Of a stretch of 64,000 nucleotides of DNA, positions 2,264-57,773 are shown in pieces. This stretch comes from an uncultured Prevotellaceae bacterium (GTDB lineage: Bacteria; Bacteroidota; Bacteroidia; Bacteroidales; Bacteroidaceae), in assembly GCA_902781315.1 (NCBI GenBank), contig CACZIT010000008.1:4176-68175 (forward strand), read 5' to 3'. The notes below the pieces were generated by a model that saw only the letters and a program-made list of their open reading frames with translations, did not search any database and had not been told where the DNA came from. The position numbers and the translations under genes were made by a program. Position 1 is the first letter of the stretch. Every line of letters starts with the position of its first letter.

Positions 2264-3151
2264 TTAGTCAACAAAGCGACGGAGAATGTCGCCATAGGCA
2301 TCGATGCGGCGATCGCGCAGGAACGGCCACCAGCGGCGCACCTGCTCGGAGCGCGAGAGGCTGACCGTAACCACCTGCCGCACCTCCTCGTCCTTCGGCG
2401 CGCGATAGAGAAATTCGCCCTGCGGGCCTACCACCATCGACGAGCCCCAGAACTGGATGCCATTGGTCTGGCCGGAGGGGTCGGGCTCAAGGCCCACTCT
2501 ATTCACCGTCACCACGGGCAGATCGTTTGCCACGGCATGGCCGCGCTGCACGGTGGTCCAGGCCTCGCGCTGGCGTTCCTGCTCGTCAGTCGTGTCGGAC
2601 GACTCGTAGCCGATGGCGGTGGGATAGATGAGCAGTTCGGCTCCCTGAAGCGCCATCAGGCGGGCTGCCTCGGGGTACCACTGGTCCCAGCAGACAAGCA
2701 CGCCCAAGCGCCCCACGCTGGTCTGAATGGGGTGGAAACCGAGGTCGCCCGGCGTGAAGTAGAACTTCTCGTAGTAGGCTGGATCGTCGGGGATGTGCAT
2801 CTTGCGATACTTGCCGGCAATCGTTCCATCGCGCTCGATGACCACGGCGGTGTTGTGGTAGAGCCCGGCAGCGCGGCGCTCGAAGAGTGAGGTGACGATG
2901 ACCACCTGCAGCTCGCGGGCCAGTGCTCCGTAGAACTCCGTGGAGGGTCCGGGAATGGGCTCTGCCTGGTCGAACACGTCGACGTCCTCGGTCTGGCAGA
3001 AGTAAAGCCCATTGTGCAGTTCCTGCAGCACGATGAGCTGCGCGCCGTCGGCAGCCAAGCAGCGAATGCCCTCGGCCAGCCGGTTCATATTCTCTGTCCT
3101 GTCAGCCCCGTTGTGCTGTTGCAGGATTCCTATTTTCAGTTCTTTTTCCAT
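2264..3151 (-). CDS. Carbon-nitrogen hydrolase (N-carbamoylputrescine amidase-like)
   Basis: Nitrilase triad motifs LQELH, YRKMHIP and VCWDQWYPE. Confidence 0.9.
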   Translation of the reverse strand: MEKELKIGILQQHNGADRTENMNRLAEGIRCLAADGAQLIVLQELHNGLYFCQTEDVDVFDQAEPIPGPSTEFYGALARELQVVIVTSLFERRAAGLYHNTAVVIERDGTIAGKYRKMHIPDDPAYYEKFYFTPGDLGFHPIQTSVGRLGVLVCWDQWYPEAARLMALQGAELLIYPTAIGYESSDTTDEQERQREAWTTVQRGHAVANDLPVVTVNRVGLEPDPSGQTNGIQFWGSSMVVGPQGEFLYRAPKDEEVRQVVTVSLSRSEQVRRWWPFLRDRRIDAYGDILRRFVD

Positions 3152-3194
3152 GTCCTGTTCCTGTATGCTACGACCGCGTCGCAGCTCAAAATAA

Positions 3195-4106
3195 TCAGTC
3201 TATACACCCCACAATCTCGCTGACCGACTGGCAGCCGTGCCTGTCGAGCCACTCGTTGATGCCGTCGCGCACCTTCATCGTCACCGCGGGGTCAATGAAG
3301 TTGGCCGTACCAATCTCGATGGCCGTAGCGCCCGCCATGAGGAACTCGATGGCATCCTCGGCGGTCATGATGCCGCCCAGACCGATTACGGGAATCTTCA
3401 CCGCCTTTGCCACCTGCCACACCATTCTGAGGGCCACGGGCTTCACGGCAGGCCCCGAGAGGCCACCGGTGGCAATGCTTAGCACTGGCCGGCGGCGCTC
3501 GATGTCGATGGCCATGCCCATGAGTGTGTTGATGAGCGACACCGAGTCGGCACCCTCAGCCTCGCAAGCGCGGGCAATGTCGGCAATATTCGTCACGTTG
3601 GGCGAGAGTTTCACGATGAGCGTCTTGTGGTAAGCCGCACGTACGGCTTTCACAACGCTGGCCGCCCCCTCGCACGTTGTGCCGAAAGCCATGCCACCCT
3701 GCTTAACGTTAGGGCAGGAAATATTCAGCTCGATGGCGGGAATCTGCTCCAGCGCGTCGATGCGGGCCGCACACTCAGCATAGTCATCGGGTGCCGAGCC
3801 GCTGACGTTTACGATGACGTTCGTGTCGATGTCCTTCACCTGCGGATAAATGTGCTCGCAGAAATAATCTACGCCCTTGTTCTGCAGGCCCACGCAGTTA
3901 AGCATGCCGCTGGCGGTCTCGGCCATGCGCGGGTAGTCGTTGCCCTCGCGTGGATGCAGCGTAGTGCCCTTCACGATGATGCCACCCAACTCATCGAGCG
4001 GCACAAAGTCCTGAAACTCCAGGCCATAGCCGAACGTCCCAGATGCAGTCATCACAGGATTCTTCAGCTCCAGCTTTCCGATATTTACATGTAAATCAGC
4101 CATCAC
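3195..4106 (-). CDS. pyrD: Dihydroorotate dehydrogenase B, catalytic subunit
   Basis: [33 protein letters not shown]; adjacent to pyrK. Confidence 0.95.
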
Positions 4107-49962: not shown

Positions 49963-51054
49963 ATGAAGAAATATCTTACCTATCTGACGAACAAAGAGAA
50001 GCGGACAGCATGGCTGCGAGCATTCCGCATGTGGCAGCGCCGCCCCTACGAGGTGGCACCGCTGAAGAACGAGAGCCACGTGTGCTCGTCGTGCAAGACG
50101 GAGTTCACGGGCAACTACTGCCCACGCTGCGGACAAGCGGCCGAGGTAGGGCGTTTCTCATTCAAGAAGACGCTGATGCTGTTTCTCGACGTTTGGGCCA
50201 TCGGCAACCGCAGCATGTTGCGAACCCTGCGCGACCTGATGCTGCGCCCGGGCTACATGATCCGTGACTATCTGAGCGGCATGCGCTCCGCCTACTTCCC
50301 ACCGTTCAAGATGTTCTTCCTGCTGGCAGCATTCTCGCTGATTGTTGAGTACGGCTTCGATCTGGGCCTTTCAGACGATAAAAAGACCACCCCCACCGAG
50401 CAGACGACAGCAGTGCCGGCCGACTCACTAAAAGAGAGCACAGCCCCCACCGAACAGACGACGGCAGTGCCGGCTGATTCGCTGAAAGAGAGCACAGCCA
50501 AAGCCGGACAGACGGCGGCTGTGCCGGCAGACTCGCTGCAGAAGGACTCTGTCCGGCAGTCGTCAAAGGCTGAAAGGGTGGCAGACAAATTATTGGAGGT
50601 AGGGGAAAAGTTCAAGGAGGCGTCAAAGGACAGCAAGAAGATGGACACGCCGATAGTAAACGCTTTAGTGTACACTATCAAAGCACTAAACAAACTCTGG
50701 GAGAAGAACCCCGCCGTCTTCGCCTTGCTGACGTTGATGCTGTTATCGCTGCCAATGTACCTTTTCCTGCGCCATTCACCGAACGTCCCCGACCTGCGCT
50801 ATTCAGAGTTCGTCGTGGTGCTGGTCTACACCGCGAATGTCTACAGCATTTACTCCATCATCGGCGACCTGCTGGGGTCTGTCGTCATCCAACTATTCGC
50901 GGTGTTCATGATCATCGTGACGCTGAACCAGTTCTCCGGCTATTCCAAGAAGCGCCTGCTAGGCTATATCACGCTGACGCAAATCATCGTCACCACCGTG
51001 TTTATCGCACTGATCGCACTGGTGATCTACCTGCTGTACCTTTCTCTGGAATAA
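49963..51054 (+). CDS. DUF3667-like membrane protein with N-terminal Zn ribbon
   Basis: CSSCKTEFTGNYCPRCGQ, PGYMIRDYLSG, several TM helices; internal 54-bp triplication 50392-50544. Confidence 0.85.
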   Translation: MKKYLTYLTNKEKRTAWLRAFRMWQRRPYEVAPLKNESHVCSSCKTEFTGNYCPRCGQAAEVGRFSFKKTLMLFLDVWAIGNRSMLRTLRDLMLRPGYMIRDYLSGMRSAYFPPFKMFFLLAAFSLIVEYGFDLGLSDDKKTTPTEQTTAVPADSLKESTAPTEQTTAVPADSLKESTAKAGQTAAVPADSLQKDSVRQSSKAERVADKLLEVGEKFKEASKDSKKMDTPIVNALVYTIKALNKLWEKNPAVFALLTLMLLSLPMYLFLRHSPNVPDLRYSEFVVVLVYTANVYSIYSIIGDLLGSVVIQLFAVFMIIVTLNQFSGYSKKRLLGYITLTQIIVTTVFIALIALVIYLLYLSLE

Positions 51055-51267
51055 AGACGATGGCAAATAAGATGACAATACAAGCATCTTATCCCCACAA
51101 CGCATAGACTTCATAAAGTAAAACATGTTTTACTTCATCACCCCTACGCTTTCGAACCAAAAGGCCATAGCTGGTGATGAACAAGAACAACCATTTCAAA
51201 TCTTTTATTCCGCAATACTGCTCATAATTTTTTCCACCTAAAACTTGGTATTTTAAACAATTCTTTG

Positions 51268-51606
51268 TATCTTTGCAACGTTCTCTGACCGAAGCCTGCC
51301 CGCAGGGGTGGGAAGACAGGAAGGGGAATCTATATATAGAAATAAGCGTTTACTTGACGCTTTGTGCTTGACATTCCGAAATCTGGCAGTTTCGATATGT
51401 CTGTCAAAAACAAAGCAACGGTAGATGCTCATGGGTGTGTAATATCCATTTGCAAGTTACGACGGCTATCTGTAGCATTTGTTGTAACCGATAGTGTATA
51501 TCTACATATCGGCGTGGGCTTCGGCGTTGCTCGTTCAGACAGACAGGGCGATGCCAGAGCCTCGGAGTGTGGGACGAGTAACAGGTAAGACTCCCACGCT
51601 TTTTTT
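51268..51606 (+). promoter_or_regulatory. Promoter plus long leader with a 63-codon uORF ending inside an intrinsic terminator
   Basis: TATCTTTG at 51268; uORF 51397-51588; stem AGTGTGGGA/TCCCACGCT plus T7 at 51566-51606. Confidence 0.6.
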
Positions 51607-51673
51607 GTATATATGCACGAACATCATTACCAACCATCCAGAAGAGGGAGTCGCTGGGAGTATATAATGTGAT

Positions 51674-52561
51674 ATGGATTATCTGTTTTCTGATTTGGAA
51701 GGCCATGATGATAATACTCTATATATTATCGGAAATGGTTTTGATTGTTATCATGGTATTCATTCATCCTATCTCGATTTTTACTATTGGTTGAGATACT
51801 GTCATAAAGACACCTTTATCGACACTCTTGAAATGTTATTTCCAGAAAAATATGGGGAAAGAAACCTTCTATGGAAAGATTTTGAAATGGCATTGGAAAC
51901 ATATAACATAGATAAACTCTTCAGTGATACAACTAAGAGTTTTGACATCGGATGGGATCAAAGGGCTGCAACAGCTCCAATAGACCTAATTCATCCGATT
52001 ATTACCGATATTCCTTTAAAAATTAAACAATGGGCAAAATCTTTCCATATCGAAAATGTAAAAGCAAAATTGCCCTTGCCTGCAAACAGCTTATATCTGA
52101 CATTCAATTACACAGATACATTAGAAATTGTTTACAAAATTCCTTCTGATAGAATTTGTCATATTCATGGCCGTTGCAATGCTGATGATGAGATTGTTGT
52201 GGTTGGTCATCATAAAATGGTTCCAATTAATCAGATAGAGAACAAAGATTATCCCTTTTTAGAAGAACAAGGTAAAAAAAATATTGTCAAGGAAATGAAT
52301 TCTTTATATAAAGATTGCCATGCAAATATTGATAAAAATAAAAGATTCTTTTCTTCATTAAGAAATGTTGATCGAGTTGTAATTTTAGGGCATTCGATGT
52401 CGGATATTGATCTTCCATATCTTGGGAGAATTAGAGACAAGATTTCCAAAGATGCACATTGGTTTATTTCAAAACACCATCCTACTGACGAGGTTTCTAT
52501 AAAAAGAGGAGTAGAAGAGTTAGATATTAAAGAGTGTAATAGATGGATAATTAACTTATAA
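51674..52561 (+). CDS. AbiH-family (SIR2-like) abortive-infection protein
   Basis: LYIIGNGFD..HG, LTFNYT, HIHG, ILGHSM...D.PY; low GC. Confidence 0.82.
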   Translation: MDYLFSDLEGHDDNTLYIIGNGFDCYHGIHSSYLDFYYWLRYCHKDTFIDTLEMLFPEKYGERNLLWKDFEMALETYNIDKLFSDTTKSFDIGWDQRAATAPIDLIHPIITDIPLKIKQWAKSFHIENVKAKLPLPANSLYLTFNYTDTLEIVYKIPSDRICHIHGRCNADDEIVVVGHHKMVPINQIENKDYPFLEEQGKKNIVKEMNSLYKDCHANIDKNKRFFSSLRNVDRVVILGHSMSDIDLPYLGRIRDKISKDAHWFISKHHPTDEVSIKRGVEELDIKECNRWIINL

Positions 52562-52563
52562 AA

Positions 52564-55074
52564 ATGAATAATATGAAAAATGTAAAAAAAGTATTTCTTT
52601 TGGCATTATTATGCCTACAGACACTACAATGTGCTTATGCTTATGATTTCATAGTAGATGGTATCGCATATGATATTACTTCTATGGAGAAACAAACGGT
52701 TGGTGTTACTAACGTTTCAGACAAAGAAGAAGACAGATATTCTGGAAATATAATCATTCCTGAAACCATAATTTACAACGGATCTAAGTATACCGTTAGT
52801 TCAATTGGGAAAAAAAGCTTTTACATGTGTACCAATTTAATATCAATACAACTTCCTGAGACGATAGAGTTTTTTGAAGATGGCGAGATTGTAAACGCAA
52901 TGTCGATCACAAGTGGGTGTTTTATGGGATGCAAAGAATTAAAAAGCATTAAGTTTCCAAGTTCTCTTAAGAAGATTGGAGCATTTGCTTTTAATGGCTG
53001 CTCAAGTATAGAAAACATTAACATACCTGACTGTGTTACTGAAATAGGCCGTAATTCTTTTTCTCATTGCCAGAATTTAAAGTCAGTTACTCTTTCCCCA
53101 AAAATTAAAACTATAGAAAGGGCTACGTTTGATAATTGTCGTTCATTGGAAACTATAACAATTCCAGAAGGGGTAACTTCTATAGAATGGGGTGCATTTA
53201 ATTGTTGTGAAAAAATGAAAACTATAAAGTTTCCACAGACATTATTTTCAATAGGAAAATCTGCTTTCTATCAATGTCTTGGCTTGGAATCATTAGAGTT
53301 TCCTAGTAGTTTGACCTCTATTGGTGAGGAAGCATTTGTATGGTGTAAAAGTTTGAAGCAAATTGTAATACCAGATCATGTGACATCAATCGGATATGGG
53401 GCGTTTGCAGCATGTGAAGGAATAATATCTGTAAAACTCCCTGCACTTTTAACAAAGATCGATTTCCATTTGTTCGCAGGTTGTTCAAATATTGTTTCTA
53501 TTGATATTCCCTATGGGGTTACATCGATTGGATCAGAAGCATTTAAAGGGTGTTCTGCTTTGGCAAAAGTTTCTATGCCGAACAGCATTGTAACAATAGG
53601 AGACAATTCCTTCGATGGTTGCAAATCGCTTACACGCATTGATTTCCCGAACCAATTAAAGACAATAGGATCTTACTCTTTTAAGGGCTGTTCTGGCATA
53701 ACAAATATTAGTATTCCTTCAAGCGTAAACACTATCGAAAGTGGTGCCTTTTCGTTTTGTACAAATCTTCAAGAATGCAATCTTTCTCCAAATATTGAAG
53801 AAATAAAGAATTCAGTTTTTTTTAAATGTAGTAATTTAACGAGTATCATAATTCCCAGAAAAGTAAAAACTATAGATGACAATGCATTTTCTGGTTGCAC
53901 CCAGTTGACAAACGTGTCTTTTTCTGACAGCATTACGTCAATAGGTGCATCTGCTTTTAAGGACTGCACAAGAATGCAATCTCTTAATATTCCGAAGAGT
54001 GTTGAATCCATAGGCAATTACGCTTTTTCCGGCTGCAAGAATCTTTATGATTGTATTATTCCTGATGGGGTATTCTCATTAGGCGAAGCAGCTTTTTATG
54101 AATGTCACAGATTAGAAAAAGTTACAATTGGCAGAAACGTTGCTAGTATTCGTCCTAAAACATTTGACAGGTGTTATGATCTTATAGAAATTATTTCGAG
54201 AATCGAAGAACCTGTACATATGGTTTCAGATGCTTTTTATAGTGATACTTATCTGTACGCACAATTAACTATCCCATATGGAACAAAAAACAAATACCTC
54301 TCTTGTGATGGTTGGAAAGATTTTGTCAACATAAAAGAACAGGAAAAGAAGGGGGAAGATTTGTTACTGACAATAAGTAGCAATGTGGGAGGTTATGTAG
54401 TTATAGGGGAAGTAACCATAAAAGAAGAAAAGAAAGAAATAAAAGTCGATAAGAATCAGAGCATTACTATCACCATTTTTACAGACAACGATTATTCTAT
54501 CAAGTCAGTCACTCTGAACGGAAAGGAAGTAAAGGACGATTTGTACAACAATACCTATACAATCGCTCAAATTAAGGAAGATATTGACTTTAGAGTAGAA
54601 TTTGCTAAGGTAGCAACCTTCCTGAGCCTCAAACAGCCGACTGGAAGTATGGATATTGTTGTCAAGGAAGGAGAGTCACAAACAATTCGGCTTGTTCCCG
54701 AAAGTGGATACGCGATACATAGTGTTACTTACAACGGCAAAGACGTGACCAACCAATTAGCTGAAGATAATACTTTCGTTACCCCTGAAATTACTGATAA
54801 TTCGGTACTATATGTAATTTATGAGAATGGAGACAATCCGCCTGTGAGTCATGCAAAATACCTCACCATCAAACATTCGGAGAATGGTGTTGTGAAGCAG
54901 AAAATCACTTTGGGACGCTCTTACACCTATAAAATTTCGCCCGTTAGTGGTCAAAAACTGACAGCCTTATATTTCAATGGAGTGGATGTTTCCTCAGAAA
55001 TCAAAGGTGGAAAATACACCACACCTGTACTGAACGATAACGCTACTTTAGAAGTTGAATTTGAAGCCGAATGA
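52564..55074 (+). CDS. BspA-type leucine-rich-repeat surface protein
   Basis: About 18 IPxxVTxIGxxAFxxCxxL repeats, signal peptide, C-terminal bacterial repeat domains; low GC. Confidence 0.9.
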   Translation: MNNMKNVKKVFLLALLCLQTLQCAYAYDFIVDGIAYDITSMEKQTVGVTNVSDKEEDRYSGNIIIPETIIYNGSKYTVSSIGKKSFYMCTNLISIQLPETIEFFEDGEIVNAMSITSGCFMGCKELKSIKFPSSLKKIGAFAFNGCSSIENINIPDCVTEIGRNSFSHCQNLKSVTLSPKIKTIERATFDNCRSLETITIPEGVTSIEWGAFNCCEKMKTIKFPQTLFSIGKSAFYQCLGLESLEFPSSLTSIGEEAFVWCKSLKQIVIPDHVTSIGYGAFAACEGIISVKLPALLTKIDFHLFAGCSNIVSIDIPYGVTSIGSEAFKGCSALAKVSMPNSIVTIGDNSFDGCKSLTRIDFPNQLKTIGSYSFKGCSGITNISIPSSVNTIESGAFSFCTNLQECNLSPNIEEIKNSVFFKCSNLTSIIIPRKVKTIDDNAFSGCTQLTNVSFSDSITSIGASAFKDCTRMQSLNIPKSVESIGNYAFSGCKNLYDCIIPDGVFSLGEAAFYECHRLEKVTIGRNVASIRPKTFDRCYDLIEIISRIEEPVHMVSDAFYSDTYLYAQLTIPYGTKNKYLSCDGWKDFVNIKEQEKKGEDLLLTISSNVGGYVVIGEVTIKEEKKEIKVDKNQSITITIFTDNDYSIKSVTLNGKEVKDDLYNNTYTIAQIKEDIDFRVEFAKVATFLSLKQPTGSMDIVVKEGESQTIRLVPESGYAIHSVTYNGKDVTNQLAEDNTFVTPEITDNSVLYVIYENGDNPPVSHAKYLTIKHSENGVVKQKITLGRSYTYKISPVSGQKLTALYFNGVDVSSEIKGGKYTTPVLNDNATLEVEFEAE

Positions 55075-56582
55075 ATATGAGACGATTTATAGTTTTACTG
55101 CTAGGAGTTCTTTCTGTATGTTCCGCTTGTGTTGCCCAAATGCGAACGGATGCCGAGATGGATTCAATAGCCTTGACTGTGCTGGGAAAGAATGCTCAGT
55201 TCGCTAAAGCTAAAGGATATTCGAAGGTACAAGCAGCTCTTAAGAAAGAACGAATGGAGAATCTTACCATTCTGAGCAATGCATCAGGATCTGTTATCGT
55301 TTCTAACCAGAAAAATGTAACTCCCGTGTTGGGATACTCATTTGACCATCGTACTTGCGAAGAACAACCTTGCGGATACAGATGGTGGTTGGAGGCTATA
55401 AATCATTCATTATCAATGAATAAGAGCCGGAAAGCAACTATCAATCCGCCTTCCGACTTTCCCAGGCGGGTTGAGCCAATTGTGACTTCACATTGGAGCC
55501 AATACAGTCCATATAACAATCTTTGTCCAAAAGGAACGTTAGCAGGATGTGTCGCAATAGCAATGGCTCAAATCCTATATACTTATAAATATCCTATTCA
55601 CGGCATTGGAGAAAACTCTTACGATTGGAATGGACAAACACTGACGGCTAACTTTGCAGACACATATTACGATTGGGACCACATGTTGGATAGTTATGGC
55701 AGTACAGACTACACGAATCAGCAAGCAAATGCTGTAGCAGAGTTGGTTTCTCATTGTGGTATTGCAGTGCGCATGAATTATGGCAGCAGCGTTAGTACAG
55801 CGTACTTTTACTATCTATATACTTCTCTTAAGGAATTCTTTGATTATCAAACCGAATCATACAAAGACCGCTCATGGTATTCTGATGAAGAATGGATGAG
55901 AATGATCTTTAAAGACCTAAGTGAGGGTAAGCCTATTGTATATAGTGGTGAGGATGTTGCAGGACAAACTGGCCACGCCTTTATCTTGGATGGATACGAT
56001 GAGAATGGTTTGGTGCACGTGAATTGGGGATGGGGATTTCGCGACGGATTCTATGATCTTGCCCTAGTATATCCATACAACCAACAAATGATTCATGGAA
56101 TCACCCCTCTAAACAACACTATCGACAAAAATATCTATCTTTCAATTCAGCATGCATTGAATGGTTCTGTCCAATTGGTGGTTGAATATGAAGAGTCTTT
56201 CGAATACAAGATTGAGCCTGCTGATGGTTGGCACATCCATTCTGTATCATTCAACGGCAAGGATGTCACTGATGATTTGACATCCGAAAATGAATATAAA
56301 ACTCCAACAATTAAGGGTAATTCTTCTCTTAATGTCTCTTTTGAAAAAACTGACACGAGGATTAGTCAGACGAACAAGAGCCTCATGCATGTGACTGCAT
56401 ATCAAGGGTTAATTAGTGTTACTGGGGCTGAAGTTGGAGAAAACATTTCCGTTTTTACGATAGATGGAAAGGAGTTGCAAAGTGCAGAAACCGACGGTCA
56501 CGGTTCTATAAGTTTCTTTCTGCCTGAAAGTCAGACTTACATTGTGAAAGGTAAGTACAAGACAGTAAAGGTCAGGCTGTAA
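55071..56582 (+). CDS. Peptidase C10 family protein with T9SS C-terminal tail
   Basis: GCVAIAMAQ, GHAFILDG, HVNWGW; tail VFTIDGK...YIVKG...VKVRL; low GC. Confidence 0.88.
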   Translation: MNMRRFIVLLLGVLSVCSACVAQMRTDAEMDSIALTVLGKNAQFAKAKGYSKVQAALKKERMENLTILSNASGSVIVSNQKNVTPVLGYSFDHRTCEEQPCGYRWWLEAINHSLSMNKSRKATINPPSDFPRRVEPIVTSHWSQYSPYNNLCPKGTLAGCVAIAMAQILYTYKYPIHGIGENSYDWNGQTLTANFADTYYDWDHMLDSYGSTDYTNQQANAVAELVSHCGIAVRMNYGSSVSTAYFYYLYTSLKEFFDYQTESYKDRSWYSDEEWMRMIFKDLSEGKPIVYSGEDVAGQTGHAFILDGYDENGLVHVNWGWGFRDGFYDLALVYPYNQQMIHGITPLNNTIDKNIYLSIQHALNGSVQLVVEYEESFEYKIEPADGWHIHSVSFNGKDVTDDLTSENEYKTPTIKGNSSLNVSFEKTDTRISQTNKSLMHVTAYQGLISVTGAEVGENISVFTIDGKELQSAETDGHGSISFFLPESQTYIVKGKYKTVKVRL

Positions 56583-56607
56583 CATTTCATCATATAGAAA
56601 TTATGTC

Positions 56608-56649
56608 AAACGGGCAACCATAGGTTTTAGGCTGATGGTTGCCTGTTTT
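56608..56649 (+). terminator. Intrinsic terminator closing the low-GC operon
   Basis: AAACGGGCAACCAT-N-ATGGTTGCCTGTTTT. Confidence 0.75.
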
Positions 56650-56771
56650 AATATCCCACAATATTGCTCAGGACTAGGTCTCGTTAAAAATTATTATAAG
56701 ATGATGATGATAGTGGGATAATTGGTAGATAATCGTTACCTTTGCATAGAAACAAAGGGAAAAACAAGCAA

Positions 56772-57590: not shown

Positions 57591-57600
57591 GGGAGAGAGA

Positions 57601-57637
57601 GACCCACCCCCTGCCCCTCCCTGTGAGGGAGGGGAGT
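57601..57637. repeat. Intergenic copy of the 37-bp palindrome
   Basis: GACCCACCCCCTGCCCCTCCCTGTGAGGGAGGGGAGT. Confidence 0.9.
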
Positions 57638-57673
57638 AGTATGTCTTTGCAATGCAAAGTCGCCAGAAAAAAT

Positions 57674-57744
57674 GTAGGGACGCGGCGTGCCGCGTTACTT
57701 GGTTTGTTTTCCAACTCCAGTAACGCGATATGCCGCGTCTTTAC
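57674..57744. repeat. REPIN-like inverted pair of GTAG-type REPs
   Basis: GTAGGGACGCGGCGTGCCGCGTTACT and, inverted, GTAAAGACGCGGCATATCGCGTTACT. Confidence 0.75.
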
Positions 57745-57773
57745 ATTTTTTTAATCCGAAAGGCCTTTGGACC

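Follow-up and report, generated by a model that had tools for sequence, protein, structure and literature searches.

Leaders that work by termination and antitermination, such as riboswitch platforms, T-boxes, and protein-dependent attenuators, are structured, promoter-proximal RNAs with an intrinsic terminator just before the gene; the 5' arm of this terminator can also pair elsewhere, and RNA that has terminated there builds up. These features are shared by the RNA described here, encoded at positions 51268-51610 (+ strand) of a 64,000-nt stretch of DNA from an uncultured Prevotellaceae bacterium (contig CACZIT010000008.1), which was analysed as a whole and will be called the window, and located upstream of the abortive infection gene abiH. 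Contrary to the terminator/antiterminator leaders, however, this RNA measures about 330 nt, consists mostly of one rod, without any multi-helix junction being seen, has no Rfam family, precedes genes of unrelated function, and accompanies cargo that was acquired horizontally. It is not a riboswitch or T-box by the usual marks either, since it matches no aptamer family in Rfam and its cargo is heterogeneous. Bacteroidales dominate gut and rumen communities, where both colonisation and phage dynamics depend on the surface proteins, capsules, and phage-defence genes that vary from strain to strain. The RNA at 51268-51610 is one copy of a structured leader found across the Bacteroidales and outside Rfam; this leader is a new, widespread RNA class, probably of the attenuator kind, carried by acquired modules of gut and rumen members of the order. 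We read it, with a probability of roughly 55%, as an attenuator or gate that acts in cis and comes with accessory operons which are AT-rich and were acquired horizontally.

HK022 put, the Bacillus EAR element, and the rrn boxA leaders resemble this RNA in being cis-acting and structured, and in lying near the promoter of long accessory operons. The put and EAR elements are 70-120 nt long and do not end in a terminator of their own. As for boxA, the left arm of the rod carries a motif with the consensus GUUCUUGAC (GUGCUUGAC at 51363-51373 of the window) that partly resembles GUUCUUUGAAA, the rrn boxA of related genomes (L171, L174-L176), but lacks one U and is located within a helix. This likeness in sequence is a lead towards Nus-factor antitermination, no more. 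The window's own assembly has no rRNA. The leaders of Bacteroides capsule operons (CPS) carry opsX pause sites read by UpxY proteins, which are NusG paralogs, and are described as variable, with short pause hairpins (PMC11685472). Like these leaders, and like RfaH/ops in Proteobacteria, the RNA described here would be a leader-encoded signal for accessory surface operons, in this case of Bacteroidales. Contrary to the CPS leaders, it is long, conserved across families, and terminator-ended, and its operons mostly lack UpxY: a UpxY-like first gene follows 4 of 123 leader copies, that of the window not being among them.

The locus begins with the -7 promoter box TATCTTTG (51268-51275, + strand), which follows the Bacteroidetes consensus TAnnTTTG, is the sole such match on the + strand within 50901-52700, and has a TTG 20 nt 5' of it (51245-51247). 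Among 110 distinct copies of the leader compared column-wise (that of the window and 109 others), the TA..TTTG column is at least 90% conserved. The leader spans about 324 nt, with a predicted start near 51283 and a U-tract whose last position is 51606, and closes with an intrinsic terminator (51569-51606, + strand) whose stem pairs GUGGGA (51569-51574) with UCCCAC (51592-51597) around a 17-nt loop, followed by a run of seven T (51600-51606). The ATG of abiH lies at 51674, after a gap of 67 nt. The box, the long leader, and the terminator 67 bp before abiH are all located where a preliminary description of this locus, made from its sequence, had placed them. The strong terminator proposed there does exist, but not as a simple strong hairpin: its stem has 6 bp and is nested within the base of the rod of about 270 nt (51334-51610), and a consensus terminator scan did not detect it. 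Nor is the leader host-like in GC content, as had been thought; this is around 45% in the window copy and 46.6 +/- 2.8% across copies, independently of host GC, so it is intrinsic to the element. No consensus -7 box lies past the terminator, where a promoter belonging to abiH itself had been named as an observation that would tell against the description; in the absence of such a promoter, the expression of abiH must depend on read-through.

The leader is widely distributed. In a DNA search, the rod was matched in 104 of 201 genomes of the same family, covering 25 of its 35 genera, normally with several copies per genome that are 68-80% identical to the window copy. The two arms are so alike that BLAST matched some copies in reverse, and 28 correctly oriented copies align all the way from the -7 box to the U-tract. 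A profile search resulted in 142 full-length copies, most of them covering the promoter columns too, and nhmmer matched the window copy over model positions 3-346 (E 4e-89). The most conserved block of the right arm, GCGTGGGCTTCGGCGTTGCTCGTT (51512-51535, + strand), is nearly invariant in the 28-copy alignment, and the corresponding 24-mer pattern GCGTGGGYTTCNGCGTTGYTCGTT matches at least 120 named Bacteroidales records, with Prevotella, Bacteroides, Phocaeicola sartorii, P. oris, Hallella, Paraprevotella, Muribaculaceae, Paludibacteraceae, and Parabacteroides among the matches listed. Two cultivable carriers, P. sartorii DSM 21941 and Hallella mizrahii, are also among them. The same 24-mer was found in none of 400 other Bacteroidota genomes, nearly all from outside the order, apart from the window's own genome.

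Rfam 15 gave no match with an E-value of up to 1 in the window, and none at the gathering score in 14 other copies; our literature search found no description of the leader RNA. The published candidate HMP2_1881, whose TAnnTTTG box leads directly into a covarying rod of about 100 nt, and which is reported to show high expression and an association with "radical SAM mobile pair" genes (PMC8040213), was considered as the same RNA and set aside: at 105 nt, it is another RNA with the promoter-plus-rod layout. Such a layout may recur among the leaders of Bacteroidetes. A plasmid or phage origin was likewise ruled out, since plasmids gave no leader match and phage records gave a single partial match of 52 nt to a phage contig. 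The genome of the window has a second, diverged copy (contig C36:31571-31910, - strand; E 9e-19) with the box TAACTTTG, which heads a gene of 691 aa, LRR-like (leucine-rich repeat) by eye only, in an islet of 2.4 kb with 40% GC that directly precedes groES/groEL. At the locus L145, two leader copies with the same orientation lie about 2.6 kb apart (301-671 and 2993-3262, both on the - strand), as tandem leader-cargo modules; each pair of matches in L068, L084, and L091 comes from the arms of one copy, whose apex is short or absent.

The leader region folds at -132 kcal/mol (z = -6.1 against dinucleotide shuffles). In the minimum free energy (MFE) fold, a 5' hairpin domain (51280-51329, + strand) is made up of an outer stem, an internal loop with a CCGAAG-like motif, and an inner stem; its shape is kept in most of the 60 copies inspected, whose stem sequences differ, and in a duplex test its strands pair better with each other (-7.4 kcal/mol) than across copies (-6.1 kcal/mol; p = 3e-4). 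The rod (51334-51610, + strand) has a left arm, an apex whose length ranges from 17 to 81 nt between copies, and a highly conserved right arm. Over the 28-copy alignment it comprises 78 pairs, 32 of which have changed on both sides, and 91.5% of the cells form standard pairs. None of 500 shuffles reaches any of the five measures used, and sliding the partner by 1-3 columns lowers the pairing to 36-48%. The terminator stem is 94% paired, and two of its six pairs have changed on both sides. According to a scan of the 110 copies, the same GUGGG segment covaries with CCCAC, as in the terminator, and with CUUG of the left arm, as in the rod, and these two pairings of GUGGG are mutually exclusive. 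The covariation scan gave no sign of a conserved multi-helix junction. Pairing of the variable tip with its own downstream region was tried and rejected, since the tip binds its own spacer and start region (-22.4 kcal/mol) no better than those of other copies (-22.8 kcal/mol; p = 0.67). In 110 of 110 copies, the fold of the + strand is more stable than that of its complement, by 27 kcal/mol, and the rod pairs include 329 G.U cells versus 55 A.C cells; this strand asymmetry is that of a structure acting as RNA, and not of a DNA repeat.

The position of the leader relative to its neighbours is equally regular. The next open reading frame (ORF) is co-oriented in 123 of 129 copies (95%), most of these genes starting 45-90 nt past the element, a mode that includes the 67-nt gap between the window copy and abiH; upstream genes are mixed (81 on the + strand, 45 on the -). 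Since a -7 box is present in none of 78 short spacers, and in only two of 111 spacers overall, the first gene depends on the leader promoter. The 123 first genes fall into 85 clusters, and their Pfam tally is headed by BspA-type LRR proteins (10), followed by NusG/UpxY (4), radical SAM, DUF4595, and DUF2971 (3 each), and AbiH, glycosyltransferases, CotH, MBOAT, and GtrA (2 each); many of their N-termini look, by eye, like signal peptides or lipoprotein signals. Cargo GC is around 42% whatever the host GC, and 71 of 86 loci have a cargo poorer in GC than their upstream flank (p = 3e-11). All this points to a leader acting in cis on whichever gene lies downstream, with nothing specific to do with AbiH. 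The preliminary description had suggested searching the leader across Bacteroidales and listing the downstream genes, and this search has found the leader widespread and the genes mostly unrelated; its view of the arrangement as particular to AbiH is not borne out, with AbiH behind two of 123 leaders and none of nine other AbiH loci in the family carrying one.

In the window, abiH (51674-52561, + strand, 295 aa) is the first cargo gene of an acquired module. Its product is a full-length member of the AbiH family by sequence: it matches Pfam PF14253 (E 4e-50) from position 1 to 259 of the 260 in the profile, scoring 171.7 bits where the curated cut-off is 30.9, and PADLOC AbiH at 1.6e-22. The SIR2-like label previously attached to it gained no support from one sequence search, which found no solved relative at the sequence level and included no fold comparison. 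Downstream lie the genes for a BspA-type LRR protein of 836 aa with a signal peptide (52564-55074, + strand; Pfam LRR_5, 6e-178) and for a C10 (streptopain-like) cysteine protease of 503 aa with a Spi-inhibitor prodomain (55071-56582, + strand; Peptidase_C10, 3e-61; Inhibitor_I69, 2e-7). The three genes are tightly packed, the first two being 3 nt apart and the last two overlapping by 4 nt, and a terminator-like hairpin with a T-run (56611-56649, + strand), read from the sequence as GGGCAACCAT...ATGGTTGCC and then TTTT, closes the module. The whole of it (51128-56681, + strand) thus runs through a 140-nt spacer, the promoter, the leader, abiH, the LRR and C10 genes, and the 3' terminator, with a GC content of 30-42% versus about 60% outside.

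In the DNA metagenomes X12 and X18, a contig connects 51127 with 56682 through 19 other letters, which stand in for 5554 nt, and in X12 the depth is around 100-126 in the flanks and 40-45 in the island. The missing block starts 140 nt 5' of the promoter and ends about 30 nt past the terminator behind the C10 gene. Since this empty-site allele, that of a related strain, lacks 51128-56681, the promoter, the leader, abiH, and the LRR and C10 genes make up one unit: the leader belongs to the cargo and not to the host, and both form a single insertion/deletion unit. The flanks are not syntenic in species of the genus, at 60-70% identity, and the empty site came from the metagenome contigs instead. 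The left edge of the module lies at most 2 nt from the centre of a 10+10 palindrome, AAGTAAAACA|TGTTTTACTT (51099-51152), which may be the terminator of the upstream gene and whose 3' half is missing from the empty-site allele. The only other case of AbiH behind this leader, in a metagenome-assembled genome (MAG) of Prevotella, is again followed by a BspA-type LRR gene. AbiH adjoins such a gene in three unrelated places, namely the window, the Prevotella MAG (L048:2326-3225, - strand, with the same leader), and L186, from the same family, with the order reversed. The linkage of an abortive infection gene to genes for a secreted LRR protein and a protease is unusual.

The leader is transcribed as a discrete, abundant RNA ending at the terminator, as seen in assembled metatranscriptome contigs, whose depths and 3' ends are approximate. 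In the bovine gut, a 295-nt RNA contig covers 51301-51595 at a depth of 67, and a 220-nt contig covers 51376-51595; the RNA contigs at the leader end at 51595, and none was found over abiH in the bovine gut metatranscriptomes. Many high-depth fragments match the conserved right arm only, and probably come from other leader copies. The copy of Phocaeicola sartorii precedes a UpxY-like gene, and in one mouse-gut sample its leader has a depth of 63, with 25 falling to 5 past the terminator; in sample X51, the leader alone is covered. This difference fits variable read-through.

The leader probably gates transcription into the accessory genes downstream. By default, most transcripts would stop at the leader terminator, keeping the cargo low or off, and cargo expression would need a read-through decided during transcription. 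The deciding event could be the pairing of the rod with its left arm, in competition with the terminator stem, or, alternatively, a host factor binding to the nascent RNA or to the RNA polymerase. As dozens of unrelated operons begin with this leader, the signal would be a general one, serving a regulon of accessory surface and defence genes, rather than being specific to AbiH or read by ribosomes on the 63-codon ORF discussed below. The heterogeneity of the cargo together with the order-wide conservation would make a general host factor most likely, rather than a metabolite, and a NusG paralog or a Nus-type complex are candidates. The one NusG paralog in the window's genome lies elsewhere, behind a short leader of its own, so a paralog encoded beside a leader copy in this genome was ruled out.

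Several observations weigh against a regulated gate. The alternative local hairpins covary weakly (81.8% paired versus 81.1% in shuffles), and the fully zipped rod ends in the U-tract, so that it could be a constitutive terminator with leaky read-through. Besides, TATATATG at 51608 is a -7 candidate with one mismatch, non-consensus cargo promoters could escape the TAnnTTTG search, and zero contig depth does not prove that a transcript is absent.

A bolder version of this mechanism, which we regard as tentative and would not yet bet on, is a portable, order-wide RNA gate, moving along with horizontally exchanged gene modules, through which a single read-through factor encoded by the host, such as a NusG paralog or a Nus-type complex loaded on the nascent left arm, would control unrelated operons for surface, capsule, and defence functions, dozens of them per community. 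If true, it would represent an RNA-structure-based counterpart of RfaH/ops for Bacteroidales xenogenes, and would reveal a previously unseen regulon of accessory genes, AbiH among them. One conserved leader heading many acquired operons implies a common control point of the accessory genome, and the leader can be used as an annotation marker for the 5' edge of acquired modules. It is also a warning that gene-specific mechanisms, such as a switch for AbiH based on an upstream ORF (uORF), should not be read into one copy of a family.

The same data could be explained without any regulation if the leader were a constitutive throttle or insulator, that is, a strong unregulated terminator behind a strong portable promoter, whose small, fixed read-through would give a low basal expression of potentially costly foreign genes, the terminated RNA being a by-product. 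The MFE structure, which zips the entire rod down to the U-tract, the RNA contigs stopping at the terminator, and the lack of both a ligand-like junction and a conserved peptide among the features found are what such a device would display. It would not need, however, 330 nt, a near-invariant 24-mer, a separate conserved 5' hairpin, or conservation across an order, and for the P. sartorii copy, the amount of downstream RNA relative to leader RNA is not the same from sample to sample; we consider it possible but doubtful. Somewhat less probable still is that the terminated RNA of about 320 nt is the product itself, acting in trans or sequestering a protein, with its position before genes being secondary. 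Its high, discrete abundance in metatranscriptomes would be in line with this role, as would the rod shape, which recalls protein-binding RNAs such as 6S, and a right arm conserved beyond the needs of pairing. The 95% co-orientation and the tight spacing of 45-90 nt to a promoter-less first gene are harder to reconcile with it, the presumed dependence of the cargo on the leader promoter points to a role in cis, no Rfam match to 6S or any other RNA was found, and the variable tip is not complementary to its own downstream region. That the element works at the DNA level, as a miniature inverted-repeat transposable element (MITE), a repetitive extragenic palindrome (REP), or a recombination site, is suggested by its being multi-copy, dispersed, and nearly palindromic, to the point of the reversed BLAST matches, and by its marking the edge of an indel. 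Nevertheless, MITE and REP sequences are strand-symmetric and randomly oriented, whereas the leader has the asymmetries in G.U over A.C cells (329 versus 55) and in + strand stability (110 of 110) described above, a conserved promoter and U-tract on one strand only, and a fixed orientation relative to the downstream gene. The indel boundary, moreover, lies 140 nt 5' of the promoter and not at the ends of the rod, and the element is not found on plasmids, with the 52-nt partial match as its only trace in phage records, all of which makes this explanation very improbable.

The most improbable of these explanations is the one put forward in the preliminary description, in which ribosomes translating a 63-codon ORF would decide read-through, and translation stress, caused for instance by a phage, would switch AbiH on. 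This ORF (51398-51588, + strand; ATG at 51398, stop codon at 51586-51588) does exist and, as had been described, extends over the terminator's 5' arm, with its stop codon in the loop, and the leader does terminate before abiH. The overlap of an ORF with a terminator arm is what this one copy has in common with leader-peptide attenuators (trp, his, erm, cat). Contrary to these, however, no ORF, start codon, or frame is conserved across the leader family. The start column of the window has an ATG in none of the 109 other distinct copies, the very lack of conservation that had been named beforehand as telling against translation-coupled attenuation. ORFs starting at other, conserved ATGs cross the variable apex, whose length of 17-81 nt means that frames are not kept, read the right arm in all three frames, and stop at four different places. 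A second candidate frame, from the conserved ATG in GGGCAATGC, reaches at least 15 codons in only 29 of 110 copies; in about 10% of copies it continues in frame as far as the cargo gene, which by a rough estimate is close to chance. With neither start codon, frame, nor stops kept across copies, a conserved leader peptide was ruled out; the covariation pattern is also that of an RNA and not of a coding region, and the leader serves 85 unrelated gene clusters. The 63-codon ORF is judged, on these sequence comparisons, to be non-functional and a by-product of the RNA sequence. What is retained of the earlier proposal is a promoter-proximal, structured, terminator-ended leader at whose end RNA contigs stop; the decision of read-through by the uORF is not. 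The alternative offered there, an antitoxin RNA, has an apparent parallel in type III toxin-antitoxin systems (ToxI/ToxN, AbiQ/antiQ), where a non-coding RNA and a terminator directly precede an abortive infection gene. Contrary to those systems, the leader has no tandem repeats (0 rows in TRF, and no direct repeats longer than 17 nt) and is the same RNA before 85 unrelated clusters, and AbiH does not belong by Pfam to the ToxN/AbiQ-type endoribonuclease family, so the antitoxin proposal finds no support.

Apart from the module, the window has neither tRNA nor tmRNA genes. Just past a TerB-DnaJ gene lies a GC-rich hairpin (57598-57640; CCCCTCCCT GTG AGGGAGGGG) where contigs from four gut metagenomes reach depths in the thousands and leave dozens of loose ends, which would make it a very abundant dispersed repeat or a shared terminator. 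The same intergenic gap contains a long imperfect hairpin (57674-57745; GACGCGGCGTGCCGCGTTACTTGG...CCAGTAACGCGATATGCCGCGTC), for which Rfam returned only a spurious, sub-threshold hit to mir-308 (33 bits versus 60). Finally, the DUF3667 gene (49963-51054) encodes a protein in which a unit of about 19 aa is present as three imperfect tandem copies (such as TEQTTAVPADSLKESTA; window positions 50380-50560), and one metagenome contig skips exactly 57 nt of this gene (50389 to 50447), which suggests variation in repeat number between strains.

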